64,000 bases of DNA from Nitrosomonas sp. (GCF_022842015.1 NZ_JALHQJ010000003.1:4557-68556); one strand, 5' to 3'. Positions 7,283-44,395 are shown, counted from the stretch's first letter. Made by a program: numbers and translations. Notes: generated by a model from the letters alone, not told the origin.

Positions 7283-7313
7283 AGTTACTATTTCAAGTTA
7301 TTACAATCAGTTA

Positions 7314-9257: not shown

Positions 9258-9524
9258 ATGATTAATAAAAATGTAATTGACGAAATCAATGCCAAAGTCA
9301 GCGAAATTATGCAAAACAGTCCAGCCAAAGATATCGAAAAAAATGTCCGGGTTTTATTATCGGGCGCATTTTCCCGGCTTGAATTAGTTACTCGTGATGA
9401 ATTTGATGTACAGCAGGAAGTATTACAGCGCACCCGTGAAAAACTGATGATTCTTGAAGCCAAGGTAACCGCACTAGAAGCTCAGTTGGGTACAAACGAA
9501 ATGCAGTCAGAGTCCGATAAGTAA
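9258..9524 (+). CDS. ubiK: Accessory factor UbiK family protein
   Basis: LELVTRDEFDVQQEVLQRTREKL coiled-coil motif; usual position upstream of comM. Confidence 0.8.
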   Translation: MINKNVIDEINAKVSEIMQNSPAKDIEKNVRVLLSGAFSRLELVTRDEFDVQQEVLQRTREKLMILEAKVTALEAQLGTNEMQSESDK

Positions 9525-9593
9525 TTTATACTCCGTGGTAATAGCTTGAGTAAATCTTAACCTGCATCCATAACTTAATTCTGCGCTTAATAG

Positions 9594-17456: not shown

Positions 17457-18713
17457 TTATTTAGAAATTGATAATGATTCAGGTGTGGGGATCGCTCCAG
17501 TAACGAGTTTGTTGAGGAGATATTTCTTTTGGTCTTTAAGAATTGTTAGCTTTTGTTTAAGTCGATAAATTTCTTTGTCCGCAACGTCTAGAATTTCTGC
17601 GATTGCTGATTGTTCTTCAAATTCAGGTATTTTTATGTTTATTTTTCCTAATTCTCCAAGATATACACCCCCTTGAGCACCTCTACTTTCCCTTTGCTTC
17701 AACTGTTTCTGAAAATTGCTTGCTTGCATTAGTTGAAAAAAAAATTCTGGACTTTGATTTTTAAATCTTAGAATTCCAACACTACGTTGAAATGTATAAT
17801 TATTTTTATAATCTTTAGTTAAAGCTACTCTTCCAATAGACCCAACCAAGCAAAGTAGCAGATCCCCATTTTGTATACGATATGATTTATGAATTTGTTC
17901 AAATTCTGTCTGACTAATAAGTCTAGGATCATTATTAGTGATAACATTTCCATCGACAATATCTTTGGCACTAAGTAACGGAATACCATTTTTGACATTC
18001 ATGTGAGTTGCGTGGGTACCATCTTTTATTAAAGAAGTAATTTGAGTCAGTTTATAAATCTTCCATGGATTATTGAATCCCGGTAAGCGTGTCTTGCTTG
18101 TAAGCAATTCCTGCATCAAACCTTTTTTGATTTCTTTCTTAATTTCAATCTTTCGCTTCAAGCTTTTAATTGAGTGATCCCAGGCACCTAAAACTGCAGC
18201 GATCCTTTTTTGTTCAGAAATAGGTGGCAAATGGAGTTTAACTTTTTTTAAATCTCCAACATTTACATGCTCCATCGTAGAACCAGTTTTTATTCTTCTT
18301 ATCTGTCTTTTACCCTCTAGTGATCTAAAGTATTGCAAGAAGTATTCTGGCGAAGCAATTTGTTTTTTAAGTCTAGTGATAATTAATGCGTGACAGTTTG
18401 CTCCAACTAATTTAGGTGGAACAATTGTTGTTAAACCAACTTCACCAGTTTGAACTATAAGCAAATCTTTTTCCTTTAAAATTGACTTGCTATTTTTTGT
18501 ACTAAATTCTGGTGTTACTTTTTTTATACCATTAAAATTAAATCCAAAATCAGTGACGTTGTAACCTTGAACATAGGTAACCCCATTAGGTTCTTCAGTG
18601 TAGTTCTCTACCGCCTTACCAACAAATCCATTGGTCATAAGTTCACACGCGTCATTCATTGTGACTTCTTCCCATGTTTCAGGAATATTCTGTTGTTCCT
18701 GGTTAGTTTTCAT
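17457..18713 (-). CDS. hsdS: Type I RM specificity subunit S
   Basis: Two TRDs with conserved PPISEQKRIA and PEFEEQSAIA repeats, KKGLMQELLT. Confidence 0.92.
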   Translation of the reverse strand: MKTNQEQQNIPETWEEVTMNDACELMTNGFVGKAVENYTEEPNGVTYVQGYNVTDFGFNFNGIKKVTPEFSTKNSKSILKEKDLLIVQTGEVGLTTIVPPKLVGANCHALIITRLKKQIASPEYFLQYFRSLEGKRQIRRIKTGSTMEHVNVGDLKKVKLHLPPISEQKRIAAVLGAWDHSIKSLKRKIEIKKEIKKGLMQELLTSKTRLPGFNNPWKIYKLTQITSLIKDGTHATHMNVKNGIPLLSAKDIVDGNVITNNDPRLISQTEFEQIHKSYRIQNGDLLLCLVGSIGRVALTKDYKNNYTFQRSVGILRFKNQSPEFFFQLMQASNFQKQLKQRESRGAQGGVYLGELGKINIKIPEFEEQSAIAEILDVADKEIYRLKQKLTILKDQKKYLLNKLVTGAIPTPESLSISK

Positions 18714-20130
18714 AATTTCGCATTAAAGCTATTGATTCTTTCAGCTGAGAAAGAAAGCTCTTGTTTTTGTTCGCAGGATAGTGAATGCAGTTTCTTATAA
18801 ATGTTGGTAAGGTGACTTGATTTTGTTTTCCCTTTTCTGGATAAGTTTTTTTAAGTTTTAATTTTTGAACAAAAAACTGTTCATCAAATGCATTTATGCC
18901 AATAGTCTCTTTCTTTTCATCTTCTACTAATTTTTCGTTTACTTCATCCAGTAGTCTTTGGCGGAGAAAGTCATAAAGTTCATTATGGTAACTATCATCT
19001 AATATTCCAAAAACATCAAAGTTTACACTTGCGTAAGTAGAGTTTTTTTCATCAAATGGAATTACTTCAGTTTTTTCATCTTTATCATGTTTAACTACCT
19101 TAAAATTTCTAGATAAACATTTCTTGTCTATCATATAATTTGAGTGTGTTGCAAAAAAACAGATATTATTATCTGATGAAGTTAGTTTTATTAGCTCACT
19201 CAAAAAATATTCCTGGGCTTGTGGATGAAGATGTGTTTCCGGCTCGTCTAAAAGAATAAGTGAGTTTGAAAGTGAATTTACTTCTTTCTGTGCAGATATG
19301 TTAAGAAGAAATGAAATAAACTGTTTAAAGCCATCGCTTCTTTGACTTGTGGTTTTTGCCTTTTTATTTGAATCCTTTACATGAAAATTGATCCCATCAC
19401 CTGAAATATCGAAGGTTATTGTGATTGAATGATTTGGCCAAACTTTTCTTATAAGACTAGTAACTTGCTGTCCGAGTTTATCCCTCAGATCCTCTCGTTC
19501 AGTAGAATCTGTTGTTATTGTTTGTATGATGCTTTGTATTCTTTGTTTTGTATCATATCCACAAAGTTCAAAACATCTCTTAAGTGGAATAGAAATATTA
19601 TCTGGGTTACTAGCAAATTGAGACAGTAATATTTGGTTTGTTATCAAATATTTCTCAGCATATTTCCAGTATATTGTGTAATGAGTAGAGCTAAATATTT
19701 GATCTAGCAATAGCGGCTCTATTTGAGTTTTTATATTCTCATCTGTCAGATCGTTAAATGATATAGTTTTTACTAGTTGTAAATTAGGTAAACTATAATT
19801 CACTTTTAGAGTTACATTTTTTATATCATTATCTTTAATTTTGATATCTGTATACTTTTTTACAATGAGTTCTTTACAAACTATAACATCATCTTTTTCT
19901 TGAACATATTCGTACTCGACTTCAATAGGAAGATCTTTATCTTGAAAATCTGAAGCGGTGGGGATAACGTGCTCGTCTAAAAGAGCAAACGATTGCAATA
20001 TGCTACTTTTTCCAGCTTCATTAACTCCAATAAGTCCATACGTAAAAGTACCGTCAGAAACTTGGTTGATGTCAAATTTTACATTCTCAATACTTCTGTA
20101 ATTTTTTATAGTGATAGATTGTAGTTTCAT
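18703..20130 (-). CDS. ABC/AAA ATPase with unassigned C-terminal domain, embedded in the RM operon
   Basis: IKNYRSI, GVNEAGKS Walker A, SDGFKQF signature, LLDEPETHLHP, THSNYMI; C-terminal IRNCIHYP. Confidence 0.8.
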   Translation of the reverse strand: MKLQSITIKNYRSIENVKFDINQVSDGTFTYGLIGVNEAGKSSILQSFALLDEHVIPTASDFQDKDLPIEVEYEYVQEKDDVIVCKELIVKKYTDIKIKDNDIKNVTLKVNYSLPNLQLVKTISFNDLTDENIKTQIEPLLLDQIFSSTHYTIYWKYAEKYLITNQILLSQFASNPDNISIPLKRCFELCGYDTKQRIQSIIQTITTDSTEREDLRDKLGQQVTSLIRKVWPNHSITITFDISGDGINFHVKDSNKKAKTTSQRSDGFKQFISFLLNISAQKEVNSLSNSLILLDEPETHLHPQAQEYFLSELIKLTSSDNNICFFATHSNYMIDKKCLSRNFKVVKHDKDEKTEVIPFDEKNSTYASVNFDVFGILDDSYHNELYDFLRQRLLDEVNEKLVEDEKKETIGINAFDEQFFVQKLKLKKTYPEKGKQNQVTLPTFIRNCIHYPANKNKSFLSQLKESIALMRNYEN

Positions 20131-20134
20131 ATGT

Positions 20135-21643
20135 TTATTTAATACCTAGCTCCTTCAAGTATTCAGACATCTGCTTTTCTAGTTTTTGCAGCTCCGGCTC
20201 AAGTTCAGCAAGTTCCTTAAGATTCGCACTGATATCGACTGGCGTTTCCTCTTCAAAAGTATCAACGTAACGAGTGATATTAAGATTGAAATCATTCTCT
20301 TCTATTTCGGCAAGATCAACCGAGCGAGCAAATTTTTCTACATCCTTACGCTTGGTGTACGTACCGTAAATCTTCTCAATATGCTCATCGGTCAGAACGT
20401 TTTGTGCTTTTGCTGACTTAAACTCCTTGGATGCTTCGATAAAGAAGATATCTTTTTTCTTTTCGTTCGCCCCACCTTTCTCACGTGATCGATCAATGAC
20501 AAGAATTGCCACTGGAATACCTGTTGTTTGAAAAAGCCCTGCGGGTAGGCCAATAACTGCATCAATGATGTTTTCCTTGATCAGATGTTCACGAATCTTG
20601 CCTTCGACTCCACCACGAAAGAGTACGCCATGCGGAACAATGACTGCCACACGTCCAGTTTTTGGCTTTGCTACTTCGATCATGTGCGTAATGAAGGCAA
20701 AGTCGCCTTTGTCCTTTGGTGGAACTCCTCGCCAGAAGCGATTATATGAATCTGATTCAGCATGTTCTGCACCCCACTTTTTAAGCGAGAATGGGGGATT
20801 GGCTACAACAACATCAAAACGCATCAGCTGGTCATTTTCGACGAGAAGGGGATTATTGAGCGTATCGCCCCATTCAAGACGTGCCGAATCTTTTCCGTGA
20901 AGGAACATGTTCATGCGAGCGAGTTGGAAAGTTGAACCTGTTGATTCCTGACCATAGAGGGCGTAATTCTTTGAACCTTTCTTTTCAACTTCTTCACCAG
21001 CCAAAAGAAGGAGGCCGCCCGAGCCACAAGCTGGATCACAGATACGATCACCCTCCTTAGGTTCTGCAAGCATAGCGACCAGCTGAGCCACCGAACGAAC
21101 CGTGAAGAATTCACCTGCTTTTTTACCTGCATCGGCACCAAAGCGTTCAACCATGTACATATATGAGTTGCCGATGATATCGTCGCCCACATCCGAGAGG
21201 TCAATCTTTGCAAAATCCTGAATGAGATGGCGAAGCATCTTGTTACGTTGTGCCAACTTGCCAAGTACCGACTCAGAGTTGAAATCAACACCAAATACAC
21301 CTTCAAGCTTCTCACTGTTTGCATCTTCAATACGGCGCAGCGCTTTATTTATCTCATCTCCAATGTTGTCCTCTTCAATTTTGCTGTAGATATAATCGAA
21401 AGAAGATTTTGGGGGAAGATAAAAGCGATCAAGCTTCATCTTCTCCTCGATTCGTTTTTCATCACTTCCAAAGCGCGCCTTGTATTCATTGTGACGCTTC
21501 TTATTAAGATCACTCAGGTACTTAAAGAAAAGCATGGTGAGTGCATAGTCTTTATATACACCGCCATCAACACTACTTCGTGAGGAATCAGCGGCGGCCC
21601 AAAGAATTTTATTGAGTTCTTCCTGAGTGAATTTTTTAGTCAT
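20135..21643 (-). CDS. hsdM: Type I RM methyltransferase subunit M (m6A)
   Basis: EFFTVRSV, DPACGSGG, ANPPF, PHGVLFRG, NLNITRYV. Confidence 0.95.
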   Translation of the reverse strand: MTKKFTQEELNKILWAAADSSRSSVDGGVYKDYALTMLFFKYLSDLNKKRHNEYKARFGSDEKRIEEKMKLDRFYLPPKSSFDYIYSKIEEDNIGDEINKALRRIEDANSEKLEGVFGVDFNSESVLGKLAQRNKMLRHLIQDFAKIDLSDVGDDIIGNSYMYMVERFGADAGKKAGEFFTVRSVAQLVAMLAEPKEGDRICDPACGSGGLLLLAGEEVEKKGSKNYALYGQESTGSTFQLARMNMFLHGKDSARLEWGDTLNNPLLVENDQLMRFDVVVANPPFSLKKWGAEHAESDSYNRFWRGVPPKDKGDFAFITHMIEVAKPKTGRVAVIVPHGVLFRGGVEGKIREHLIKENIIDAVIGLPAGLFQTTGIPVAILVIDRSREKGGANEKKKDIFFIEASKEFKSAKAQNVLTDEHIEKIYGTYTKRKDVEKFARSVDLAEIEENDFNLNITRYVDTFEEETPVDISANLKELAELEPELQKLEKQMSEYLKELGIK

Positions 21644-30589: not shown

Positions 30590-33169
30590 CTATAAGGTAG
30601 AGAACTTCCTAATTTTTTTTCTAATTTCTTCAAATCGCATTATTTCATCATTAAGATTCTGTGGTTCAGGATTCTTGTAAGCATATTTATCGCTATGGGT
30701 ATGTCCTTCCATATAGCGACAACATTGTGCAAAACTATCTTGTAGTTCTTGAATTAAAATCTGGTCAAAGTTCACTTCTGATAAGGAATCAATACTAACT
30801 CTATCCTCAAATGGTCTTACTGTATTATTAAAGAGATCATAGATAACTAGTACCTCATAAGAAGTTCTTAATGCAGAAAAGCCTTGGGCTAAATACCTGT
30901 ATCTTTCTTCCGGAGGACAATCGTCTTTATTGCTATTCCTGAAGTAATTCTTTGCAGGCTCAGCATTTCTGTATTTCTTCTGATATATTGGAGCGTTTCC
31001 GAACCAAATAAAACCAGGCTTATTGTTTCTACTTTCAATCCAATGACATAATACTTCGTCTTCTTTTGATTTAGATAAAAGATTAGATACGAAAACCAAA
31101 TCGTGTGAGAAGACAATTACTTGCTTGGCTGATGATTCGGCAATTAATCTCCTTGCTATTTCAGCTTTTCTTGCATCATCTAAAGAAGTAACAGGGTCGT
31201 CAAATATGATTCCTCTGTTCACTTCTGATAATTGCATTTCTGCTATAAAGTCAGCAATAGCAATAACTTTCTGCTCTCCTTCACTCAATACAGCATTCGG
31301 GTTATTACCTCGTAATTTTAGCTGTCTATACGATCTACCTGCTGTGCCTGTATGATTTATCTCGATACCAAAATTTCCATTTAGTTTTTGACACTCTTCA
31401 TTAAAAGTTTCGACATATTTCTGATTGAAATACTTATCTGATAGAGCTTTCTCAGTATCGGTTATTTTTCTTTTGGCAAAATTTGCACTACCTGCTTTTT
31501 TTATCCATATTTGATTATCAACGAAAGCCTCAAATTTTGAAAAATGAGTATTAAATTTCTCTTTGTGTTCTAAGAATGTTTTTTCCTTCAGCAATTTTTC
31601 CAATTTATTGCTTTGTTCATCATCTTTGAACAATTTAATTGCATCGCCAAGCGCTGTTTCAATCGTTGTGTGCTCTTCAACGCTAATTTTTACTTCAATT
31701 CGATTATTTGCTGTTTTATTTTGAATATCGGAAATGATGCTTTCAGATAGCGTTTTTTGTTCAGTGAGCCTTTGTTTTAATGAGTTCAAATGCTGGGGAT
31801 ATTTTTCAGTAAGCCAAGCTGAGAGTGTATTTTCTATAGGAAACAACTCAAAAACTAATTTCTCAAAAGCTTGCCTGATTTTATCAAGCTCTTCCTGTGC
31901 TTTTTTTGCATTCTCTTCCGCGACACTTTTTATAAAAGTCCAATAACTTGCAATCAATTTCTCAGCATCTTCTGAAAGTGGCTGATGGCAAAATAAACAG
32001 TTATCTCCGTTTTCAGGATAAATAGCTTTTTCAAATTTTTGATTTATTGCGAATGCTTCGGCGCTTACAATAAAATCTTTCCACTCTTCAGTGCCAATAC
32101 CTTCAATTTTATCCGTTTTAAAATTTTCAATTCCCTCGGCTTTAGCAACATCTTCTTTTTTCTTGCAATCGTTTATTACTTTTTTTACCTTTTCAAGTGT
32201 TTCGGTTGAGAAATATCGGTTAAGTGTTTCAAGTGCCTTTTTATTTTCTCCTAATAATTTTTTAATGTTCTCAAGATCTTTTATTTCCTTATCCTTACTT
32301 CTTGAAGCCAGAAGCAGTTCGTCATATTGCTTCTGAATTTCCGCTTTTTTGGTTTTATCTTCTTCTGAAAAAGGAGTGTATTTTTTCAAATCTTCAATTT
32401 TGGTTGAGGCAGAAAGTTTCTCAATTGCTGTTTTAATTTCAGATTCGCCATCAAATAAAAATAAAAGACTATCTAATGTATGCCCAATCCTCTTATCACT
32501 AATATTAGCATTTAGTTTTTGTTCAATTTTTGTAATAGCATCGGTGTATTCAGCAAAAAAACTTAATCCTGCTGGCCGGAACTCAAATTCATTTTTGTTC
32601 TCAAGTTGCTTTAATAATCCCTTTCCGTCAAAAACAGAGAACTGTTCAAACTCTACTGAATTCTCATTTGCAGGATATTCCAATGGAATGTCTGAATTCT
32701 GAGAAATGAAAGTAAATTTTGCTTTAATGGATTTGTGACCGCTATTGATATGAACATTGGGCAAAATTTCTTCTGGAGCTTTTGAGTAAAATACTTTTTT
32801 GAGCAATCTAACATAACCTGATTTTCCGGAACCGTTTGCACCGTAGATGATAGTCAGATTAGGGCTGAATTCAATTGTTTGGTTTTCAGTTAAAGCGTTT
32901 ACACCTTCAACACTTTCAAGTCTTGAAAGTAATAAATCAAGTTTATGATTACCTGAATTTCCGGCATTGTAATTGATTGTAATTACAGGCTTCTCGGTCT
33001 CATTCTTTAGCTTTAATTCTTCAAGGAGACAGGAATACGAAGTATCGATGTCATTTAGAGAAATGGCATTCCCTGACAAAATCTTCTGAGCGATGTATTT
33101 TGCCCAATACGGGAGATTATTGGCAAAATTATTTATTTCAGATTCAAGTGTTAAGTGCTTAGAAGTCAT
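30590..33169 (-). CDS. RloC-like ABC-ATPase with zinc hook and HEPN-like C-terminus
   Basis: GANGSGKS, CLFC hook in a long coiled coil, LSEGEQK, FDDPVTSLD, RYMEGH (Rx4H). Confidence 0.7.
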   Translation of the reverse strand: MTSKHLTLESEINNFANNLPYWAKYIAQKILSGNAISLNDIDTSYSCLLEELKLKNETEKPVITINYNAGNSGNHKLDLLLSRLESVEGVNALTENQTIEFSPNLTIIYGANGSGKSGYVRLLKKVFYSKAPEEILPNVHINSGHKSIKAKFTFISQNSDIPLEYPANENSVEFEQFSVFDGKGLLKQLENKNEFEFRPAGLSFFAEYTDAITKIEQKLNANISDKRIGHTLDSLLFLFDGESEIKTAIEKLSASTKIEDLKKYTPFSEEDKTKKAEIQKQYDELLLASRSKDKEIKDLENIKKLLGENKKALETLNRYFSTETLEKVKKVINDCKKKEDVAKAEGIENFKTDKIEGIGTEEWKDFIVSAEAFAINQKFEKAIYPENGDNCLFCHQPLSEDAEKLIASYWTFIKSVAEENAKKAQEELDKIRQAFEKLVFELFPIENTLSAWLTEKYPQHLNSLKQRLTEQKTLSESIISDIQNKTANNRIEVKISVEEHTTIETALGDAIKLFKDDEQSNKLEKLLKEKTFLEHKEKFNTHFSKFEAFVDNQIWIKKAGSANFAKRKITDTEKALSDKYFNQKYVETFNEECQKLNGNFGIEINHTGTAGRSYRQLKLRGNNPNAVLSEGEQKVIAIADFIAEMQLSEVNRGIIFDDPVTSLDDARKAEIARRLIAESSAKQVIVFSHDLVFVSNLLSKSKEDEVLCHWIESRNNKPGFIWFGNAPIYQKKYRNAEPAKNYFRNSNKDDCPPEERYRYLAQGFSALRTSYEVLVIYDLFNNTVRPFEDRVSIDSLSEVNFDQILIQELQDSFAQCCRYMEGHTHSDKYAYKNPEPQNLNDEIMRFEEIRKKIRKFSTL

Positions 33170-33992: not shown

Positions 33993-35183
33993 GTGCATTA
34001 CCAACCCATTTCATTTTTTGGAAGAACCAACGCTCGAAATTCTCACCGCCACTTTGGTATCAAAAATAATGACCGTTTTTCCCATATCTATGTAATTGGC
34101 CGTACCGGGGCTGGAAAAACTACCTTATTGGAAACTCTGGCTACACAGGATATACAAAATGGCAAGGGCTTATGCGTCATTGATCCACATGGCGATCTGG
34201 CTGAAAGATTAGTATTAAGTGTTCCAGAACAGAGGACTAATGACCTTTGTTATGTGAACGTACCCGATATACAACAACCTTATGGCTATAACCCACTAAG
34301 AAAGGTACACCCTTCCCGTATACCCTTGGCCGTGTCGGGACTGATGGAAGCTTTCAAAAAACTTTGGGACGAGGCCTGGGGCGTTCGCATGGAGCATATA
34401 CTTAGAAATACGCTCTATGCCTTGATTGAAGCCGGTGACGCCAAGCTACCCGATATTCTTGGTATGATTGCTGATAAAAACTATCGCGCAACCATCATTC
34501 CGAAAGTTAAAAATGAGCAAGTGCGTAGTTTCTGGCTGGAAGAATTCACTGCCTATAATCCCCGCTATCGGCAGGAAATGATCGCTCCTATTCAAAATAA
34601 AGTCGGTGCATTTCTGGCCGATCCCAAGCTAAAACGCATCTTTACCGCAGCCCCCGTTAACCTCCAATTTCGATCAATTATGGATGAAGGGAAGATTCTG
34701 ATTGTGAATCTAGCCAAAGGTCGTCTTGGTGAGGATAGTGCCTCACTGTTTGGTGCGCTACTCGTAACCACTCTTGGTTTAGCGGCTATGAGTCGTGGTG
34801 ATATGCCGGAGTCAGAGCGCCGCGATTTTTTCATATACATCGATGAATTCCAGAGTTTCACTACGCTTTCCATCGCTAATATGGTTTCGGAGCTGAGAAA
34901 GTATCGTATTGGCCTTGTTTTGGCGCACCAACACTTCTATCAATTGGAACCCGATGTTAGGCATGCGGTATTAGCCAATGCCGGTACACTGATAGCGTTT
35001 CGGGTGGGGCCAGAAGATGCACCGCTGATTGCTCGGGAATTTGCACCAGTTTTCAACGTCACCGATCTTATCAGTCTACCAAACCACCATATCTACCTAA
35101 AACTCATGATCGACGGCGCTCCTAGCCAGCCATTTAGTGCCACCACTTTACATCCCCATGATCTTAATCATTTAAGTTATTAA
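33993..35183 (+). CDS. VirD4/TrwB/HerA-like P-loop ATPase
   Basis: HIYVIGRTGAGKT, VIDPHGDL, YIDEFQSF, ELRKYRIGLVLAHQ. Confidence 0.8.
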   Translation: MHYQPISFFGRTNARNSHRHFGIKNNDRFSHIYVIGRTGAGKTTLLETLATQDIQNGKGLCVIDPHGDLAERLVLSVPEQRTNDLCYVNVPDIQQPYGYNPLRKVHPSRIPLAVSGLMEAFKKLWDEAWGVRMEHILRNTLYALIEAGDAKLPDILGMIADKNYRATIIPKVKNEQVRSFWLEEFTAYNPRYRQEMIAPIQNKVGAFLADPKLKRIFTAAPVNLQFRSIMDEGKILIVNLAKGRLGEDSASLFGALLVTTLGLAAMSRGDMPESERRDFFIYIDEFQSFTTLSIANMVSELRKYRIGLVLAHQHFYQLEPDVRHAVLANAGTLIAFRVGPEDAPLIAREFAPVFNVTDLISLPNHHIYLKLMIDGAPSQPFSATTLHPHDLNHLSY

Positions 35184-35638: not shown

Positions 35639-38419
35639 GTGTCTCAAAACTGGCTTTCCTGGCTCAAACCTTCGCCTAAACAATTAGAACAGGCGGAGAT
35701 GCTGACTATGTTGCAGCAGTTACAGCAGCATAGTCAGTGGGCATCGCCTCTCAATACCGAAGACAAAGTTAACAACTTTATAATTGATGTCATTGCTGAT
35801 GCTTGCAGTGAGCATGGCACTCTACCCGGCATACCTTTAGGCGAAGCGCTATTCTACGCCATCAAAACTCTTTTAAAAGATGATTCAATTATCGGAGAGT
35901 TACCAACTGAATCAGAAATTTGCCATCTAAGTATTGAAGAAGGTGTGCGTCTCCGAGCCGCTTTTAGACGCTATGAGCGGTTTCTAGCAACCCCAGATCG
36001 ATTATTAGCTATCTGGCAGGCAAAGCTCATATGGCTTTTTAGAGGTCTGCTTGGATATTTTCCCGAGTCCGCGTTTATTGATGTTAATGAAAATGGACAA
36101 GGTGCTGATGATTCCGTTGTTTTCCCCAAAGCTCAGGCTTTTGATCTTTGCGACAACCTTCCGGAAGTCATTCAGCGCATCATCGCGACTTTATTTGATG
36201 AGGATGTTGTTGAGGCACAGCTTTTTGCGCCAGAGCGAGACATATTTAACCGGAATTTGTTAAAAGCATCAGGCTATTCACCTGATGCTACCTTTAACCA
36301 TGATCCCAAAATAATATTACCCACAGAAAGCAAACTTAGAGAACCTGCGGCGTTGGTCGATGCGTATTTAGGCGGTACGCCATTTCAGGAACTGTTATAC
36401 AGCCCATTACCGTTTGCGATTCCGTTTCCGGCCCGATTTGAACACACGCACATTGTTGGCGGGACTGGGCACGGCAAAACCCAGCTTATGCAATTCTTGA
36501 TTCATCACGATATTGTGCGCTCACAAGATGATGGACGCTCAATTGTGGTGATTGATAGCCAAGGTGATTTGATCAATACCATTTCAAAGCTTGGTTATTT
36601 TAGCAATCCGGCACTAGCCGAACGTTTCGTACTCGTTGATCCAAACGATATTGAGCATCCGGTATGTCTAAACATGTTTGATTTCAATCGGGACAGACTA
36701 AGCGGTTATGCACCGGTTGACCGGGAAAAGATTTTAAATGCCACCATTGAGCTTTATGAGTATTTCTTTGGTGCTCTTCTTGGCGCTGAACTTACCCAAC
36801 GCCAAGGACTAATATTCCGCTACTTGGCCCGGTTATTGATTGAGATTCCCGATGCCAATATTCATACACTCAGGGAATTGATGGAAGATGGGGCAAAATT
36901 CCGGCCCTATATGGAGAAACTAACCGGTACGGCCAGAAGTTTCTTTGTCACGCAGTTTTTTGATAAAAAATTTGGTGAGACCAAAAAGCAAATTTTGACC
37001 CGTCTTTGGGGTGTGCTATCGAATTCATCCTTGGAGCGGATGTTTTCCCATACTCGCAATCGGATAGACATCTTTGAGCTCCTAAATCAAGGCAAGATTA
37101 TTCTTATTAATACCGCCAAGGACTTGTTAGGGCAAGACGGTGCAGCCATTTTCGGGAGATTCTTTATTGCCCTGATCGCTCAAGCCTCGATTCAACGGGC
37201 CGCCATGCCACCGCATACCCGTCGATCAGCTTTTGTTTATATTGACGAAGCGCAAGACTATTTTGATGACAATATTTCGCATCTGCTTAATCAAGCTAGA
37301 AAGTATCGAGTAGGACTGATCTTTGCTCATCAAAACATGGATCAATTAACTGCCAATCTTCGTTCCAGTGTACTGGCTTCCACCACCATTAAATTTGCCG
37401 GTGGTTTAAGTGCCAAGGATGCCGGAGTTCTTGATTCTGAATTCCGTACCGATGCCGATTTCTTGCTAGGTATGAAGAAAGGGAAAAATCATACCGAGTT
37501 TGCTTGTTATGTGAAGAACTACACTAATAAAGCGCTGACAGTATCGATTCCACTCGGGTTTGTGGAAGATAAACCCAAGATCACAGCCTTTCAGTATGAA
37601 GAGCTTTTGGATCGGAATCGTGAGTTATACAGTGAACCGCCACTATTGCCTGAAGAAATAGCGTTTCCTGAGCAGAGCAAACCAGAGTATAAAGGGCTAC
37701 AACCAGCCAAACCCAAAGAAACAACACCAGAAAAGCCATCACAGCCAGTGGCTACACCAGCTGAGCAAGAAAAATCCGCTTCACATGTACAACAGTCAAT
37801 TATCACGCCTATTGAATCGGAAGTACCTACTACACCAGAAGCCACCGCTAAAACAACCGCTGCGCCTAAAAAAGCGAAACCCATACCACCAGAGGATATT
37901 CCTCAAGCTGGCCGTGGTGGGCGACAACATAAGTATCTGCAACATTTAATCAAGCAATTGGCCGAAGAACGCGGATTCCGTGCCACTATTGAAGAAACCA
38001 TATTGGATGGCGCTGGACGGGTCGATGTATCGCTTATTCGTGAGAAAATACGAGTAGCTTGCCAAGTTTCGGTCACCACTACCAAAGATTGGGAACTTGG
38101 TGGTATCGAGAAGTGTTTTGCGGCTGGCTATACCGAGGTAGTGCTGGTATCGGGGACGGAACGGCATATCAAGAAATTATCCAAGTTTGTGGAAGAAAAC
38201 CTTGATCCCAAGGATCAGGGACGTGTCCGGTATATAATTCCTGATGGCGTTATTGAGTTTCTTGATAGTCTTGGGAAATTTACTCCGACTGAACAAGTGG
38301 TGCGTGGATACAAAGTACGCACGGTGCAACAGGCTACTGATTCAGAAGATGCGGCTTCGAGGCGGAAAGCAATTTCGGAGGTTATTGCTAGGTCGTTGCA
38401 GAAGGAGAGGGAGAAATAA
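35639..38419 (+). CDS. Large VirD4/TraD-like ATPase with Pro-rich linker and nuclease-like C-terminal domain
   Basis: HTHIVGGTGHGKT, VIDSQGDL, YIDEAQDY, QARKYRVGL; C-terminal GRVDVSL..VACQVSV. Confidence 0.75.
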   Translation: MSQNWLSWLKPSPKQLEQAEMLTMLQQLQQHSQWASPLNTEDKVNNFIIDVIADACSEHGTLPGIPLGEALFYAIKTLLKDDSIIGELPTESEICHLSIEEGVRLRAAFRRYERFLATPDRLLAIWQAKLIWLFRGLLGYFPESAFIDVNENGQGADDSVVFPKAQAFDLCDNLPEVIQRIIATLFDEDVVEAQLFAPERDIFNRNLLKASGYSPDATFNHDPKIILPTESKLREPAALVDAYLGGTPFQELLYSPLPFAIPFPARFEHTHIVGGTGHGKTQLMQFLIHHDIVRSQDDGRSIVVIDSQGDLINTISKLGYFSNPALAERFVLVDPNDIEHPVCLNMFDFNRDRLSGYAPVDREKILNATIELYEYFFGALLGAELTQRQGLIFRYLARLLIEIPDANIHTLRELMEDGAKFRPYMEKLTGTARSFFVTQFFDKKFGETKKQILTRLWGVLSNSSLERMFSHTRNRIDIFELLNQGKIILINTAKDLLGQDGAAIFGRFFIALIAQASIQRAAMPPHTRRSAFVYIDEAQDYFDDNISHLLNQARKYRVGLIFAHQNMDQLTANLRSSVLASTTIKFAGGLSAKDAGVLDSEFRTDADFLLGMKKGKNHTEFACYVKNYTNKALTVSIPLGFVEDKPKITAFQYEELLDRNRELYSEPPLLPEEIAFPEQSKPEYKGLQPAKPKETTPEKPSQPVATPAEQEKSASHVQQSIITPIESEVPTTPEATAKTTAAPKKAKPIPPEDIPQAGRGGRQHKYLQHLIKQLAEERGFRATIEETILDGAGRVDVSLIREKIRVACQVSVTTTKDWELGGIEKCFAAGYTEVVLVSGTERHIKKLSKFVEENLDPKDQGRVRYIIPDGVIEFLDSLGKFTPTEQVVRGYKVRTVQQATDSEDAASRRKAISEVIARSLQKEREK

Positions 38420-38645: not shown

Positions 38646-38713
38646 GTAATTGAAATTTTCTGTTTTTCTTTTTATTATGACAATGTAATTATTTAACTGA
38701 AAAAGGGCACTAT

Positions 38714-39148
38714 ATGAAAAATCTTTTTGATAGAAATCTTTCGTTAATAGAATCCGAAGTAGGTAATAATCTACTGTTGTATGATACTGTTAAAGAAGTA
38801 TTCTTTGTACTTAATCCACCAACAAAATTTATATGGCTGTTGTATTCCGAGGAGGATTCAATTACGCCAATCATCCAAATGATCAAAAAGTATTATAAGC
38901 ACCCTGCAAGAGAAAAAGAAATTATGGATGATGTTATCCAGATGGTAGATGAGCTAAAAAAAAATAAAATCCTTATCCCTGCAGATAATACTAAATCATC
39001 TCATTCCCAGTCCTTAAACTTAAGTACTTCTATTGAAGAACAATACAGCAAACCAACCCTAAGAAGTCTTACAAAAGAATGGATGCTGGAGTACCATCCA
39101 GACTCATATTACAGGGGTTCCCATTTTAGTGACCTGTGGGATTCTTGA
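38714..39148 (+). CDS. PqqD/RRE-family protein with C-terminal precursor-like tail
   Basis: Residues 1-89 PqqD-like (LLLYD..FFVLNPPTKFIWLL..DDVIQMVDELKKNKIL); Ser/Thr linker; YSKPTL at 111-116; aromatic-rich tail. Confidence 0.75.
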   Translation: MKNLFDRNLSLIESEVGNNLLLYDTVKEVFFVLNPPTKFIWLLYSEEDSITPIIQMIKKYYKHPAREKEIMDDVIQMVDELKKNKILIPADNTKSSHSQSLNLSTSIEEQYSKPTLRSLTKEWMLEYHPDSYYRGSHFSDLWDS

Positions 39149-40115
39149 ATTGAAAAGCTTTTCTTTTCTCTCTACTCCTGTTAAAAAATTAATTGAACAA
39201 GACTATCCTGAATTAAATTATGGAGAATACTTTTCTTCAATTGAATTTGAAGATCGGTCATTGCTGGTAGAAACGAATATTCCAAATTTAATTCCATTAC
39301 TGAACAAAAGATTCTATTGTGTCTCAAAAACAAAATTATCTTTTTGCCAAGCTTTTGTTAAGATTATTAAATCAAAAGAAAACCTTATTATTGAAACATC
39401 TTACAGAAAAACAATTTGTTTATGGAATGAATTATCTATATTTTTTGTAAAAAGAAATTCAACAAATAAAATTATTCAGGCTGGTAGTTTCAATCAGGCA
39501 ATTGGATCAAGCGACCCCCTTGATGACTCACTTACAGCCGAAATTAACACCCTAATATATTTTTTCATTGAAAGAGAAATTCTTTTAGAAATAAATTACT
39601 TATATAGAGATTATCTTTTTTTGCACGCATCATGTGTATATAACGATATGAGTAAGTTAGTCTTTCTGGGGCCGTCCTATTCGGGAAAAACGACACTTGC
39701 ATCAGCATTTGAATCTCTCGGCTGGCAATTTTTATCTGATGACATCATTGCAATCCACAGAATAACAAAAGAAATTAAATCATTCCCCAAAAAGAAACAC
39801 TTGCGCGAAGGAACAAGGAATCTTATCAATAATATTCATTTATCCAAAATTGCGAAGAAAGAATATATGAATAAACCAAATACTCGAGGATATTTTTTAT
39901 GCGGTTATAACCAAGGCCATGACCCGGAAGTAATTCCGGTCACTAACTTGGCTGATACACTTAATCAGATTTCACAGCATTTAATCATTCAAACTAAAAT
40001 GAATGGTGAAGAGAAATTTAATCAACTTTTTCCAATATTTGATAAATGGGAATTCTTCGAAATTCGAAGCATTTATGGTGACTTAACAAGCACTATTGAA
40101 GGCATTATCCAATGA
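39129..40115 (+). CDS. HPr-kinase-related P-loop kinase
   Basis: FLHAS, GPSYSGKTT, FLSDD motifs. Confidence 0.75.
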   Translation: MTCGILELKSFSFLSTPVKKLIEQDYPELNYGEYFSSIEFEDRSLLVETNIPNLIPLLNKRFYCVSKTKLSFCQAFVKIIKSKENLIIETSYRKTICLWNELSIFFVKRNSTNKIIQAGSFNQAIGSSDPLDDSLTAEINTLIYFFIEREILLEINYLYRDYLFLHASCVYNDMSKLVFLGPSYSGKTTLASAFESLGWQFLSDDIIAIHRITKEIKSFPKKKHLREGTRNLINNIHLSKIAKKEYMNKPNTRGYFLCGYNQGHDPEVIPVTNLADTLNQISQHLIIQTKMNGEEKFNQLFPIFDKWEFFEIRSIYGDLTSTIEGIIQ

Positions 40116-41077
40116 ATCCTACCACTCAAGAAAAAATACTTTTAACACCACAGATTAGAAAAGTGGTTGTTAAACTTACCAACAAGTGCAACCTGACTTG
40201 CAAACATTGCTATGTTTCAAGTCATCCACATGGAGAACATGGTCTTCAAGTAAATCAAGTTAAAAAAATTATCGATGAAACCTATAGATTGTATGGTTCT
40301 TTACTTTTTACACTCAGCGGGGGTGAAGCTCTCGTTAGAAAAGCAGATGTACTAAATCTGCTCAGATATTCAAAAAATTTTCATAAAACAGCTTTATATT
40401 CTAATGGAACTTTATTTACTAAAACTGTGAGCGAGCAGATTGCAGCGATAAGCCCAATAGTTCAAATAAGTATTGACGGTGCCTCATCATTTTCTCACGA
40501 TACCATGAGAGGGTCCGGAGCTTTTGATCGTACCCTTCATGGAATTGAAAATCTACTTACTGCCGGCTTGTCTTCCGAAAACATTCAGATTTTCTCGTCT
40601 ATTACAAATGAAACGGTTGAAGAAATGAATGAAATTCTTATGCTTGCAGATCGCTTGAGCATCAAGAGAGTGAGATTCGAACCAATTGCAAAAACAGGGA
40701 GAGCGAAAGAAACATGGCCAGATTCAGCTTCCCAAGTTTATGAAAACACTACCAAAAAATATCTAACGTATATAAAAAACCAAAAGGAATGGGTTAATGA
40801 TTGGGTTATGGAAGAAAGAAGAGACCTAAATTTTAATTTGCTTAAAATCTATAGCGATGGAACGGTGATGCCATATGCCTATTACGATGAAGAAGATAAG
40901 AAACTGGGCTCATTAGGAAATATTTTTGTCAATGATATTACAGAAATAGTCAATCCAGAAAATTTTACAAAAAAAATCATTGGGAAGTTTATCAGCGTAT
41001 CAAGTGGCCCCCAGCGAAGCTTGAAAGCTATTCAATTTACAAAACGAGGTTGTAATTTGTTATGGGATGTAATATGA
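40112..41077 (+). CDS. Radical SAM enzyme
   Basis: CNLTCKHC, SGGE, ISIDG; ATGA coupling to the kinase. Confidence 0.9.
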   Translation: MNPTTQEKILLTPQIRKVVVKLTNKCNLTCKHCYVSSHPHGEHGLQVNQVKKIIDETYRLYGSLLFTLSGGEALVRKADVLNLLRYSKNFHKTALYSNGTLFTKTVSEQIAAISPIVQISIDGASSFSHDTMRGSGAFDRTLHGIENLLTAGLSSENIQIFSSITNETVEEMNEILMLADRLSIKRVRFEPIAKTGRAKETWPDSASQVYENTTKKYLTYIKNQKEWVNDWVMEERRDLNFNLLKIYSDGTVMPYAYYDEEDKKLGSLGNIFVNDITEIVNPENFTKKIIGKFISVSSGPQRSLKAIQFTKRGCNLLWDVI

Positions 41078-42453
41078 GCTCTTTCCCAACATCTAAATCC
41101 AACAAAGAAATAATTGCTACGCTGCATCATCATAGATCAACTCTCTTCTCGTTTGAAAAAGAAGATCGTGTGATTCTCGGGGCAGTGTTCTCTAACTATA
41201 TGACAGCGCTCAATCGAGCAGCTCAAGTGATACGAAATGTAACCAATATTAAAACTAATCACACCATTCTCCTTAAAAGTCCGATAGATTCTTACCTCAT
41301 TAAACCTGTATCAGATACTTGTAATTTAAGATGTACTTATTGTTATGAAGGAGAAAAAGTAATTCGCAAGAACGGAAAAATGCCGTTAAGTCTTTTGGAA
41401 CCATTAACGAAGCAAATCATTGACATATCTCATGATAAAATCACAATTTCATGGCATGGTGGAGAACCCATGCTTAGAGGAATTGACTTCTTTAAGAAAG
41501 CTCTTTTCTATCAAAATAAATATAACAAAAAAGACCTCACAATCATCAATTCAATTCAGAGCAATGGCACATTGTTAACGAATGAATGGATCGAATTTAT
41601 ATTACTTCATAACATTAAAATCGGCATTAGTGTTGATGGACCTCTCTTATTACACGACAAATCTAGGATAGATTCAAATAATAAGGGAACCTATAATAAA
41701 GTAAAAGAAAGTATAAAAGCACTACAGCAAAGAGGAATAAATCCGGGAATAATATCAGTCATTCAGCCTCATCACATTGGAAATGCAAAATTGTATTTCG
41801 AAGGAATTGTAAAATTGGGTATCAGGAACTTAGATGTGCATCCATCTTTCGGATTTCACGGCCCAAGTGACCCTACAACCATTACAGCAAAACAATTTTC
41901 TAATTTCATGATTGAATTATTCGAATTGTGGTTAGCTTTTGGCGATCATACTATCAGGATAAGAGCTTTTGATGAATTTTTCAAAGGTTATTTAGGTGAA
42001 AAACCCGTTGTTTGTCACAATAATGGTGGTTGTTCAAAAATCTTAGCAATAAATGCAAATGGTGAAGTTATTCCATGCACCAGGCCATTTCATGACAAAG
42101 AATATATTTTTGGAAATCTTTATTCAACTTCATTACATGAAATAATACAAAGTAGCAAATGGAAAAATTTTGTTCAAAACGAAATAAGTGGTCAAAATCT
42201 CTCATCTGACTGCAAATGGAAAAGTATATGTTATGGAGGATGCCCTCAACATAGATATTCAGACAATCAGCAGGATATTAATTCATCAAACTATTTTTGT
42301 AGCTGCAGGAATAAAGATGAGAGCGGTTTCGGTCAATTATGGAGCCATATGCTGTGTAGAACGGATAGCATTATTTCGAATCTTAATGAAAAACACCTCG
42401 ATTGTTTGGTACAGACCTACGATAATAGATACAATCAAAAAGTAACCCCATAA
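41074..42453 (+). CDS. Radical SAM/SPASM maturase (anSME-like)
   Basis: CNLRCTYC, WHGGEP, SPASM-type C-terminus C..GC..GEVIPC..CKWKSICYGGCP..FC.C; ATGA coupling. Confidence 0.9.
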   Translation: MSSFPTSKSNKEIIATLHHHRSTLFSFEKEDRVILGAVFSNYMTALNRAAQVIRNVTNIKTNHTILLKSPIDSYLIKPVSDTCNLRCTYCYEGEKVIRKNGKMPLSLLEPLTKQIIDISHDKITISWHGGEPMLRGIDFFKKALFYQNKYNKKDLTIINSIQSNGTLLTNEWIEFILLHNIKIGISVDGPLLLHDKSRIDSNNKGTYNKVKESIKALQQRGINPGIISVIQPHHIGNAKLYFEGIVKLGIRNLDVHPSFGFHGPSDPTTITAKQFSNFMIELFELWLAFGDHTIRIRAFDEFFKGYLGEKPVVCHNNGGCSKILAINANGEVIPCTRPFHDKEYIFGNLYSTSLHEIIQSSKWKNFVQNEISGQNLSSDCKWKSICYGGCPQHRYSDNQQDINSSNYFCSCRNKDESGFGQLWSHMLCRTDSIISNLNEKHLDCLVQTYDNRYNQKVTP

Positions 42454-42455
42454 AA

Positions 42456-43289
42456 GTGACATTTAATCTTGGTGGAAAATTCGAAATTAACCGAATTGGT
42501 TATGGTGCCATGCAGCTCACTGGTAAGGGTGCTTTTGGTGAAATTCAGGATCAGGAAAATGCAATAAACCTTTTACAAACCGCAATCAGCAGTGGAGTAA
42601 ACTTTATTGATACTGCAGAAGCTTATGGACCTCATACCAATGAAATATTAATCAAAAAAGCACTTTATCCTTATAAGGAAGATTTGGTCATTGCGACGAA
42701 AGGTGGTCTCTTCAGACCTGGTCCATTTCAATGGAAATACAATGGCAATCCGGACTTTATCCGGAAAAATATAGAATCCAGTCTAGAAAGGCTTCAGATT
42801 GAAAGCATTATTTTATGGCAACTGCATCGAATTGACCCTGAAGTTCCAATTAAAAAAACGCTGGAACCTGTACTTGATGCTGTGAATACGGGAAAGATAA
42901 AGTTTGTTGGCTTGTCAGAAGTTTCCATAGATCAATTGAAAGCGGTTGAAGAAATTTTGCCTATTGTTTCAGTTCAAAATCTCTATAATCTCTCGATAAG
43001 GAAGTGGGAAGATATGGTTGATTATACAGCCAGCAGAAATATTGCATTTATTCCGTGGCACCCATTACATTCAGGAAAACTTTCCTTATCAGAAAAGATT
43101 AGAGATATTGCAATCGCTCACGATGCGACAGTGTACCAAATTGCATTAGCTTGGCTGTTGAAACGGTCCTACAATATTATTCTAATTCCTGGCACGAAAT
43201 CACTCACACATTTAATTGAGAATTTAAAATCTGCAGACATTAGATTATCAGATTCTGAATTTACTGAAATCTCAAAAGCAATGTATTAA
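42456..43289 (+). CDS. Aldo/keto reductase
   Basis: IGYGAM, FIDTAEAYG, IATKGG, LHRID, VGLSE, SVQNLYN, LIPGT. Confidence 0.9.
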   Translation: MTFNLGGKFEINRIGYGAMQLTGKGAFGEIQDQENAINLLQTAISSGVNFIDTAEAYGPHTNEILIKKALYPYKEDLVIATKGGLFRPGPFQWKYNGNPDFIRKNIESSLERLQIESIILWQLHRIDPEVPIKKTLEPVLDAVNTGKIKFVGLSEVSIDQLKAVEEILPIVSVQNLYNLSIRKWEDMVDYTASRNIAFIPWHPLHSGKLSLSEKIRDIAIAHDATVYQIALAWLLKRSYNIILIPGTKSLTHLIENLKSADIRLSDSEFTEISKAMY

Positions 43290-43357: not shown

Positions 43358-43825
43358 TTATTTACCATGTCGCTCATTCCACTGCTTTCTCATAGTTTTA
43401 TCAATAATATCCTCATTCATACCAAGAAATGAAGCAACGAGTCGCCGGTGATCATTCTTCATGATCGTTCCACCGCCTTCCCAATCCTTTACAGTACAAG
43501 GATCAACGCCTAAATTCCTAGCAACTACCCGCTGGCTCCACCCTAATTCTCGGCGCTTGGCAAACAACAATTCCGCAATTGATTTGGGATTCAAGTTAAC
43601 AGGATCATAACCAAGAAATTTGATCAGGATCGGCGTTTGGCAAAATTTTGGTTCTGAATGCCCATTTTCCCAGTTACCAACGGTGAAGTGAGTAACATTA
43701 AATAGCTCTGCTACCTCTGTTTGTTTCATATTAAGAAAAAGCCTTCGTTTAAGAATGTGTTCACCAATTGCTTTTGGTTCAAATTCATAAGGCTTAGGAA
43801 TTAATGACTTAAGTGAGGTGCGCAC
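43358..43825 (-). CDS. Tandem XRE-type HTH protein; predicted C-terminal module of the excised-state integrase
   Basis: Two HTH units (LKRRLFLNMKQTEVA..VGNWENG; KRRELGWSQRVVA..VKDWEGG); GTG start with no SD-like sequence; frame is open back to the TG core and closed by TAG at 43862-43864. Confidence 0.85.
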   Translation of the reverse strand: MRTSLKSLIPKPYEFEPKAIGEHILKRRLFLNMKQTEVAELFNVTHFTVGNWENGHSEPKFCQTPILIKFLGYDPVNLNPKSIAELLFAKRRELGWSQRVVARNLGVDPCTVKDWEGGGTIMKNDHRRLVASFLGMNEDIIDKTMRKQWNERHGK

Positions 43826-43828
43826 ATA

Positions 43829-43852
43829 TGGTAAAAAGGCAACGCGTCTATG
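43829..43852. repeat. Right attachment junction: arm TGGTAAAAAGGCAAC (43829-43843) + 7-bp spacer + TG core
   Basis: Exact inverted copy of 10647-10661 at the same 7-bp distance from TG. Confidence 0.92.
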
Positions 43853-44312
43853 CCCTTGCGGCTACTTGGGCCATTCCAACGGAAAATGCCATTGCACCCC
43901 AGACCAGATTTCCCGCTATCGCGGCAGAATCTCCGGCCCGTTATTGGATCGCATTGATATCCAAATTGAAGTTCCGGCGGTGCCGCAAGAAGAATTGATG
44001 CAACGCCGAATTATCGGCGAAAAAAGCAACATAATCAGAGACCGCGTGACGGAATCGCATCAACGACAACTCAGCCGACAGGAAAAAACCAACAACCGCT
44101 TGAGTGTTAAGGAAATCGACAAATTCTGTGCACTGGATACTGCTAGCGAAAACCTACTGAAACAGGCAATCAGTCGTTTGAACCTGTCTGCCCGGGCGTA
44201 TCACCGCATACTGAAAGTCGCGCGAACAATTGCGGATTTGTCGGGTATCGAGAGAATCAATAATCAGCACATTGCGGAAGCGATTCAGTATCGTAGGTTA
44301 GATAAACATTAG
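43851..44312 (+). pseudogene. comM: ComM/YifB 3' part
   Basis: CPCGYLGH..YRGRISGPLLDRIDI..LSARAYHRILKVARTIADL..HIAEAIQYR; 348+153 = 501 aa when rejoined. Confidence 0.95.
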
Positions 44313-44395
44313 ATTTCATATATCTGATGAATCAACAACGCCAAGACGAAAGATTTTGTACCTTGCATAGATATTTCAAATACTAATAAACAGGA

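Follow-up and report, generated by a model that had tools for sequence, protein, structure and literature searches.

What does a bacterium make with an operon that joins a PqqD-like protein, a P-loop protein resembling HPr kinase, two dissimilar radical S-adenosylmethionine (rSAM) enzymes and an aldo/keto reductase (AKR), and why is it kept? This question is raised by a locus at 38-43 kb of a 64,000-nucleotide stretch of DNA from Nitrosomonas sp. (GCF_022842015.1 NZ_JALHQJ010000003.1:4557-68556), called the window here. Our results suggest, with moderate confidence, that the operon contains a rare and horizontally mobile maturation cassette of the RiPP type (ribosomally synthesised and post-translationally modified peptide), in which the substrate carries its own recognition element, the product is retained in the cell and the role is most likely one in defence or conflict. 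The coordinates of all features are collected in Table 1.

The PqqD-tail protein and its conserved core

The first gene of the operon encodes a single 144-aa chain, called here the PqqD-tail protein, in which four parts can be distinguished: a RiPP recognition element (RRE, approximately residues 8-89), a linker that varies, the leader motif YSKPTL and a conserved C-terminal core. Pfam recognises PqqD in residues 22-87 (26.2 bits), and the AlphaFold2 (AF2) model (mean pLDDT 78) has a winged-helix RRE followed by a low-confidence linker. The top Foldseek matches of the RRE were TbiB1 and other lasso B1 RREs with bound leader peptides (TM 0.77-0.82). Discrete RREs of the lasso type recognise and bind [Y/W]xxPx[L/V/I/F/A] (PMC13381572). 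In the 15-member alignment of the family the motif takes the form [Y/x]-x-x-P-x-[LIVM], with the Pro invariant, and residues 111-120 of the window protein are modelled with a mean pLDDT of about 92 and a beta-strand at 116-120. The last 7 residues, FSDLWDS, are disordered in the model.

The tail is the best-conserved part of the protein, with a mean pairwise identity of 0.61 vs 0.37 for the RRE. The core follows the pattern ...W...HP...Y...F-x-D-x-W-D-S, the family stretch ending HP...F-x-D-x-W, and H128, P129, F138, D140 and W142 are invariant among the 15 sequences. Since the core is more conserved than the RRE domain, the PqqD-tail protein is most likely its own substrate, a precursor with its own RRE, its own leader and a free C-terminus offered to the enzymes. 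Moreover, the lasso-B1-like fold of the RRE, the leader-type YxxPxL in the tail and the peptide beta-hydroxylase encoded at a related locus (L192) together argue for a peptide as the substrate. No separate precursor open reading frame (ORF) was found in the 295-bp gap upstream of the PqqD-tail gene. In one relative (P0013), the gene seems to be divided between a 94-aa PqqD and a 53-aa ORF, possibly a detached tail, which also speaks for a substrate in cis.

The enzymes of the cassette and a possible pathway

The second of the two radical SAM enzymes, rSAM-2, aligns with the anaerobic sulfatase-maturating enzyme (anSME) across the whole catalytic and SPASM region (PDB 4K36, 286 bits, alignment from residue 77), with further PDB matches to ChlB, CteB and TigE. 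It scores about 130-200 bits with DynA, DarE, GrrM/OscB, YhhB and AmcB and 106 bits with XyeB, and all of its best families are modifiers of peptides or proteins. However, it reaches none of the curated cutoffs: 285 of 349.45 bits for anSME (TIGR03942), 203 of 450 for DynA and 189 of 650 for DarE. It differs from anSME also in that the canonical CxxCx5Cx3C is broken, the first Cys being absent throughout the clade, and in that the island carries no sulfatase gene; unlike anSME, DynA and DarE, it has an extension of about 75 aa and is always paired with rSAM-1. The anSME, DynA/DarE and three-residue cyclophane-forming enzymes (GrrM/OscB, YhhB, AmcB, XyeB) take a hydrogen from the C-beta of a residue in a peptide, and the invariant F-x-D and W-x-x of the core would fit the aromatic-X-X motif of the cyclophane maturases.

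The original prediction had pointed to the N-terminal extension of rSAM-2 and to a CxxC reduced to SSDC by the absence of its first Cys. Both are present, but the emphasis on a lost cysteine needed correction, as the change is a signature of the clade and not a lesion. Thus, xxxC together with a C-x-C about 20 residues downstream and PCTRPF occurs in 19/19 of the closest database clusters and in 0/101 distant anSME-like matches; the C-x-C is absent from all 101 of the latter, 94 of which have the canonical CxxC. The invariant cysteines are C318, C324, C339, C384, C390, C394, C413 and C415, and we infer that an auxiliary-cluster ligand has been relocated in rSAM-2 and the cluster not lost. The long N-terminus is likewise common to the 19 closest clusters, in which one sequence is N-terminally shorter. 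Two other explanations were rejected: the extension is not a hidden RRE (hhalign probability of 0.2% against the PqqD-tail profile), nor do the Cys losses reflect decay, as they are clade-wide, are compensated by C-x-C and leave all catalytic motifs intact.

Note that a sister clade from betaproteobacterial metagenome-assembled genomes (MAGs; L017, 8184-10128, and L018) has an rSAM-2 homologue with 36% identity and the same xxxC and CxC signature, without rSAM-1. Ahead of this homologue lie genes for an aKG-HExxH peptide hydroxylase (47.6 bits) and for a 197-aa PqqD fusion that contains YKRPGV and has a tail of another kind. Judging by these loci, the fusion of RRE and precursor seems to be broader than the present cassette.

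In rSAM-1, CX3CX2C and the GGE motif are intact and no Cys outside CX3CX2C is invariant. Pfam scores Radical_SAM at 62.9 bits and SPASM at 19.7 bits, under the 21.5-bit cutoff. Where G-x-V-x-P-C is usual, all rSAM-1 relatives read Y-S-D-G-x-V-x-P-Y; the predicted loss of the auxiliary-cluster cysteine (PY for PC) is therefore seen in every one of them, and the protein has, by its sequence, a Cys-free remnant of a SPASM/twitch domain. The scores stay below every curated cutoff (AhbD 101.7/500, MftC 93.8/265, ScmF 93.9/400, ScmE 70.8/400, HxsC 54.7/268). The best PDB match is SkfB, over the core only, and 7VOB (a sugar-nucleoside decarboxylase) and MoaA are matched at core level.

The third enzyme, the HprK-like protein, is a putative peptide Ser/Thr kinase. 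The original prediction of an HPr-like kinase holds at the level of fold and motif, which place it in the HprK/PEPCK (phosphoenolpyruvate carboxykinase) superfamily, but not at that of curated families: the protein reaches 34 bits with NCBIfam HprK_rel_A (E=1.5e-8; cutoff 200), is also sub-threshold with HprK_rel_B and has no Pfam match. All 14 family members match HprK_rel_A/B, 11 match Pfam Hpr_kinase_C and 8 weakly match ScmC. The catalytic pattern H...GxSGxGK[ST]T...DD is kept in the family, with H166, K187 and D204 invariant and G186, T189 and D205 near-invariant, and all 50 Foldseek matches listed for the AF2 model (pLDDT 81) are PEPCK or HprK/P. Full-length relatives are few, only 4 in 1.84 billion representatives by a full HMMER scan, and neither word-based searching nor scanning genomes with the protein returned any. 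In the pathways of lasso peptides and of linear polyphosphorylated peptides (LPP), precursors bound to an RRE are phosphorylated at their C-terminal Ser by HprK homologues (PMC8498205, PMC13381572).

With CX3CX2C, GGE, eight auxiliary cysteines and the kinase motifs intact or invariant, the enzymes of the cassette look active, and a pathway can be proposed. The leader motif would dock on its own RRE in cis, leaving the end of the core free for the enzymes. rSAM-2, as a member of the anSME/DynA/DarE/three-residue-cyclophane branch, would hold two auxiliary clusters, one of them re-ligated through the new CxC, and would abstract a C-beta hydrogen within F-x-D-x-W, installing, as our leading guess within F138-W142, either an aromatic-to-C-beta cross-link or an anSME-type oxidation. 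rSAM-1, which lacks an auxiliary cluster, could act on this core too, in a second radical reaction. At loci with the kinase, the HprK-like protein would then phosphorylate a C-terminal hydroxyl, as the lasso and LPP kinases do; since the window tail ends in Ser, phosphorylation of Ser144 is predicted here. The AKR would be a local tailoring add-on that, speculatively, reduces a carbonyl left by the anSME-like step. Finally, the lack of a protease or exporter gene dedicated to the pathway makes it probable that the product remains intracellular, perhaps with the RRE domain still joined to it.

Relatives of the cassette and likeness to known systems

Eleven members of the rSAM-2 clade were examined (P0004, P0007, P0009, P0010, P0011, P0013, P0015, P0016, P0017, P0019 and L025), drawn from metagenomes and genomes and including Paraburkholderia sp. 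MM6662-R1, a MAG of the Sphingobacteriales, one contig of high GC and several that are AT-rich. In all 11, genes for a PqqD(-tail) protein and for an rSAM-1 orthologue lie directly upstream of rSAM-2, and the PqqD(-tail) proteins measure 139-171 aa, one of them apparently split (94 + 53 aa). Seven of these relatives have a kinase-like (HprK/ScmC-like) gene and make up, with the window, the eight loci of type A; the remaining four, and Paraburkholderia unamae, are without it and form type B. The P. unamae locus (L023) was found independently, through its tail protein. Its rSAM-2 (L023:11400-12700) is called as a 338-aa fragment, the full-length frame being open and including the N-terminal extension; the fragment is evidently a gene-calling artefact and not a pseudogene. 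Co-occurrence elsewhere, which the original prediction presupposed, is thus observed for four of its genes (the kinase-like one in part of the loci) but not for the AKR, found in 0/11 relatives and only in the Nitrosomonas island.

The AKR matches Pfam Aldo_ket_red (201.7 bits) and PRK10376 (245 bits, under the cutoff of 280), and it shares the low GC of the cassette. It is evidently a lineage-specific accessory gene, the conserved unit comprising three to four genes. Among the loci its position is variously occupied by nothing, by a peptide beta-hydroxylase, by an S24/S26-like peptidase (in one relative only, overlapping the end of the rSAM-2 gene) or by a methyltransferase.

The family is tiny. 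In 5.8 billion sequences it amounts to about 19 rSAM-2 clusters and 13 tail-protein clusters; besides the window's own genome, the full cassette was found in 1 of 185,579 species genomes, and a scan of the same set with the type-B tail alignment returned the Sphingobacteriales MAG only. A metagenome scan was dominated by a generic WHGGEP pattern and held one true member (L025) among 80 anSME-like loci. The HprK-like gene was not found in 36 other genomes of the genus, a scan of other genomes of the order with its protein gave only P-loop fragments (5/24), and the sole exact-protein matches came from the same island in related metagenome runs. A literature search covering SynChlorMet, RRE-fused precursors, and PqqD/SPASM with defence islands or anti-phage systems found no description of the cassette. 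The claim of an unusual maturase set therefore needs dividing: the cassette is undescribed, but its toolkit of RRE, HprK-like kinase and rSAM/SPASM enzymes has been catalogued in silico, in SynChlorMet, and the combination of RRE and kinase has been characterised for lasso and LPP peptides (PMC8498205, PMC13381572).

SynChlorMet (SCM; ScmC/D/E/F; TIGR04249, TIGR04250, TIGR04251, PF27840), itself known in silico only, also combines a PqqD homologue, an HprK-like protein of the ScmC type and two radical SAM enzymes in one operon; the kinase-like genes of the relatives match ScmC weakly, and rSAM-1 matches ScmF and ScmE. However, the HprK-like protein of the window has no ScmC match at E<=0.1 in Pfam or NCBIfam (the weak matches of 8/14 family members reach at best E 1.1e-4, and HprK_rel_A/B match better, though far under 200 bits), the ScmF and ScmE scores are those given above, rSAM-1 lacks SPASM cysteines, and rSAM-2 is anSME-like and not PqqE-like. 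Here, moreover, PqqD is fused to the presumed substrate and the cassette resides on defence-rich mobile islands.

With lasso peptides of the paeninodin type the cassette shares the B1-type RRE fold, the YxxPxL leader, the HprK-homologous kinase and, in the window, a tail ending in Ser, whereas the Asn-synthetase-like cyclase (C) and the transglutaminase-like protease (B2) are absent from the operon, its flanks and the loci of the relatives. The LPP pathways (Popov et al. 2026, PMC13381572) likewise have an RRE, a leader motif and a kinase-like protein; their core set consists of an SpI-like peptidase, an RRE, a kinase resembling HprK, an NTP transferase and an exporter like MsbA (PMC13381572). 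The cassette has no SpI-type peptidase, nucleotidyltransferase or MsbA-like exporter, the S24/S26-like peptidase being confined to a single relative. In contrast to both pathways, it adds two rSAM enzymes and a precursor fused to the RRE, and its core is conserved where the LPP C-termini are highly variable.

Other systems resemble single parts. His-Xaa-Ser operons (HxsB/HxsC) also pair a SPASM rSAM with a shorter non-SPASM rSAM, and rSAM-2 matches HxsB and rSAM-1 HxsC, but at 82.8/370 and 54.7/268 bits, and neither an HxS-repeat peptide nor HxsD is present. The mycofactocin and PQQ systems differ in their scores (MftC 93.8/265, PqqD 17/46), in a weak PDB match to PqqE and in an AKR that no relative shares, and viperin (pVip) differs in that NCBIfam viperin_w_prok reaches 51.9 of 180 bits and the PADLOC pVip matches cover the generic rSAM core only. 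On the features tested, membership was rejected for SCM, lasso, LPP, anSME, mycofactocin/PQQ, Hxs and viperin alike.

Genomic context and possible roles

The host is a Nitrosomonas, its ComM N-terminal fragment being 95-98% identical to the three closest Nitrosomonas relatives, N. ureae Nm13 included. The intact comM of Nm13 aligns to window 6595-10639 and 43851-44317 and so joins positions 10639 and 43851, showing that a 33.2-kb island has been inserted in the gene; the interrupted ComM occupies 9594-10640 with its N-terminal part and 43818-44312 with its C-terminal part. As predicted, the cassette sits at the right end of this element, as its last cargo before the XRE-type regulator, a gene outside the conserved cassette for which the relatives have no adjacent equivalent. 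The original prediction also fits in its account of tight linkage by overlaps and a 2-bp gap, in its AT-rich DNA (GC 0.32-0.36 over 39-43 kb vs 0.44-0.49 to either side) and in the absence of a lasso cyclase, peptidase or transporter, none of which the ORF listing and Pfam scan placed in or adjoining the operon. Its span of 39129-43289 holds four of the five genes, but the fifth, for PqqD, starts just upstream, at 38714. Promoter and terminator scans gave match numbers at shuffle level in the region and are uninformative.

Table 1. Position of the features in the window and at related loci (window coordinates unless a locus is named)
Feature	Position	Strand	Remarks
Operon, five same-strand genes	38714-43289	+	ORF listing and Pfam/NCBIfam scans
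PqqD-tail gene (144 aa)	38714-39148	+	ORF listing
YSKPTL, leader-type [Y/W]xxPx[LVIFA] RRE-binding motif, residues 111-116	39044..39061	+	Pro114 invariant in 15 sequences
Conserved core, residues 121-144	39074..39145	+	KEWMLEYHPDSYYRGSHFSDLWDS, Ser at end
HprK-like gene (328 aa)	39129-40115	+	start GTG 39129 (20-nt overlap with PqqD gene) or TTG 39150
rSAM-1 gene (321 aa)	40112-41077	+	ATGA overlap with HprK-like gene
rSAM-2 gene (463 aa)	41062-42453	+	alternative ATG 41074 gives 459 aa; either start overlaps rSAM-1
AKR gene (277 aa)	42456-43289	+	2-bp gap after rSAM-2
Best sigma-70-like promoter match	38650..38678	+	10/12 consensus, 35 nt before PqqD start; weak evidence
Tandem XRE-type helix-turn-helix protein	43358..43825	-	between cassette and island end; HTH_3/HTH_31 matches
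33.2-kb genomic island inserted in comM	~10640-43850		N. ureae Nm13 intact comM joins window 10639 to 43851
Large serine recombinase	10613-12175	-	left island boundary
PDC-S06, PADLOC candidate defence gene	30590-33169	-	AAA_13 ATPase; E=1e-124
PDC-S06 near cassette, two independent loci	window; L008:4090-6378		5.5 kb away in window; 170 nt downstream in L008
aKG-HExxH-type peptide beta-hydroxylase (TIGR04267)	L192:4577-5851		23 nt downstream of rSAM-2 orthologue; 109.5 bits, cutoff 40
Type I restriction-modification	L010
McrBC and AAA_5 restriction-endonuclease-like genes	L012
PDC-M40B-like gene	L014
OLD-type ATPase	L015
NucC-like nuclease and PDC-S29-like gene	L024

Further cargo of the island comprises a type I restriction-modification (RM) system, an AAA_15 ATPase, a second serine recombinase and a cytidine deaminase, and the Pfam scan adds RadC and two TraD-like ATPases. 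The AAA_15/AAA_21 ATPase gene (18703-20130) sits between hsdS and hsdM of the type I RM operon (17457-21643, minus strand). The two TraD/TrwB-like coupling-protein ATPases (33993-35183 and 35639-38419) are directly upstream of the cassette, the longer one ending 295 bp before the PqqD gene, and the island has no recognisable relaxase or mating-pair genes. A serine recombinase (520 aa) also adjoins the P. unamae cassette.

Similar surroundings recur among the relatives. Of the ten loci with usable flanks, the window included, 9/10 lie on recognisable mobile DNA (islands with a serine or tyrosine recombinase, UmuDC/S24 modules or a conjugative transposon resembling CTnDOT), and known or candidate defence genes lie within about 8 kb at 7/10. 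At L191, a 577-kb metagenome scaffold, the type-B cassette is cargo of the CTnDOT-like conjugative transposon, with TraG, TraJ, TraM, DUF4138 and DUF3945/Toprim genes on both sides. The cassette proteins of the window and of L008 are only about 41-58% identical, and the PDC-S06 gene beside both cassettes may reflect a functional pairing or only the chance company of genes in defence islands. Since the cassette is cargo of mobile islands, usually among anti-phage genes, we consider a role in defence or inter-element conflict plausible and most likely, ahead of primary metabolism or the export of an antibiotic. What was first proposed for this locus, a role in defence or fitness, is strengthened by the recurrent defence-gene neighbours, but the evidence is one of context.

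How far could this be pressed? One could suppose a dedicated system of defence against phages or mobile elements, in which the PqqD-tail protein, once modified, serves as sensor or effector and the rSAM and kinase steps arm or trigger it; the biochemistry would be the same, with immunity as its function. We hold this to be possible but somewhat unlikely. The seven loci near defence genes speak for it, as do the type I RM, AAA_15 ATPase and deaminase of the window island, and the cassette is strain-specific, none of 36 further genomes of the genus having it, and occurs in scattered phyla, on islands and a CTnDOT-like transposon. The missing exporter, too, would fit intracellular action. Against this, the link is one of association, the beta-hydroxylase tailoring gene resembles those of natural products, and P0013, with its ABC transporter, methyltransferase and carbamoyltransferase, has the look of a biosynthetic locus. 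Nor did the literature searched connect PqqD/SPASM cassettes with defence against phages.

Another possibility is an ordinary antimicrobial or signalling RiPP, secreted or released by lysis, whose core is cut off by a host or distant protease and exported by a generic transporter. rSAM-2 does resemble DynA/DarE and the cyclophane maturases of exported peptides, tailoring enzymes vary by locus, one relative has the S24/S26-like peptidase and another a nearby ABC transporter. Nevertheless, the window and most relatives lack a protease or exporter, no immunity gene is evident and the core is unusually invariant for an antibiotic in an arms race, so that this explanation is improbable.

The original prediction had seen in the AKR a redox partner of the mycofactocin/PQQ kind. 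In favour of a peptide-derived redox cofactor with the AKR as its user, the strongly conserved core, in which aromatic and acidic residues are invariant, resembles cofactor precursors, the pairing of a PqqD-type chaperone with rSAM follows the logic of PQQ and mycofactocin, and the AKR is translationally coupled in the window. Comparison does not support this: the relatives lack the AKR, the PqqD, MftC and PqqE models stay far below their cutoffs, PqqA/B/C and MftA/D/E/F genes are absent, and the cassette is sporadic and mobile and is not co-inherited with dependent dehydrogenases. We regard a cofactor as very improbable. Of the new intracellular RiPP or cofactor-like pathway once proposed, what stands is an undescribed and apparently intracellular RiPP-like one, but not the cofactor analogy. 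Least probable of all is that the rSAMs act on a non-peptide substrate, such as a nucleotide in the manner of viperin, with the PqqD-tail protein only as regulator or scaffold: the pVip models of PADLOC give cross-hits with both rSAMs (E 4e-17 and 2e-15) and rSAM-1 retains no peptide-specific feature beside its core-level matches to 7VOB and MoaA, but the viperin matches concern the generic rSAM core, rSAM-2 stands firmly among peptide-modifying SPASM enzymes, a peptide hydroxylase accompanies one relative, and no role beyond peptide presentation is known for an RRE that has its leader motif in cis.

The cell-retained, RiPP-like cassette that we favour has several points against it as well. 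Neither rSAM-1 nor rSAM-2 reaches any curated family cutoff, and every reaction step above is drawn from family resemblance. The AF2 models were built on shallow alignments (15 sequences for the PqqD-tail protein, 14 for the HprK-like protein), and the predicted docking of the leader motif in cis, as a beta-strand on the RRE with the last residues of the core free, derives from their confidence pattern. A core conserved beyond its RRE is atypical of RiPP natural products and could mean a folded adaptor domain. Only 3/8 kinase-type (type A) tails end in Ser, so that the C-terminal-Ser rule of the lasso kinases is not general. As for defence, the association comprises about ten loci without a matched control, three loci (L023, L191 and P0013) have no defence neighbour, and in PADLOC v2 no specific model matches the cassette proteins, the only hits being generic pVip cross-hits and a marginal VakA (E=0.005).

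What appears new in the theme of rSAM, RRE and kinase is the self-presenting precursor, the rewired or discarded auxiliary clusters and the residence in defence islands. Taken to its furthest, the cassette would be an immune or conflict system of a new kind in prokaryotes, one that draws on RiPP chemistry, its cross-linked and, in some lineages, phosphorylated C-terminal peptide acting as an intracellular effector or sensor. This is tentative, and we think it rather unlikely; it would explain the missing protease and exporter, the fixed core and the position among restriction, McrBC, OLD and PDC genes.

If the reading of the PqqD-tail protein is correct, the cassette would offer a clear natural case of a RiPP substrate fused covalently to its own recognition element, and a ready-made minimal scaffold with which to study and engineer the delivery of cores to radical SAM enzymes by an RRE. 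It would also pose two enzymological puzzles with clean signatures in the sequence, a SPASM enzyme with a moved ligand (CxxC to xxxC plus CxC) and an obligate partner rSAM without auxiliary cysteines. A family this small has little ecological weight, and its value is mechanistic: the recruitment of peptide-modification chemistry for intracellular conflict, on islands, elements resembling integrative and conjugative elements and a conjugative transposon in Proteobacteria and Bacteroidota, would become testable.

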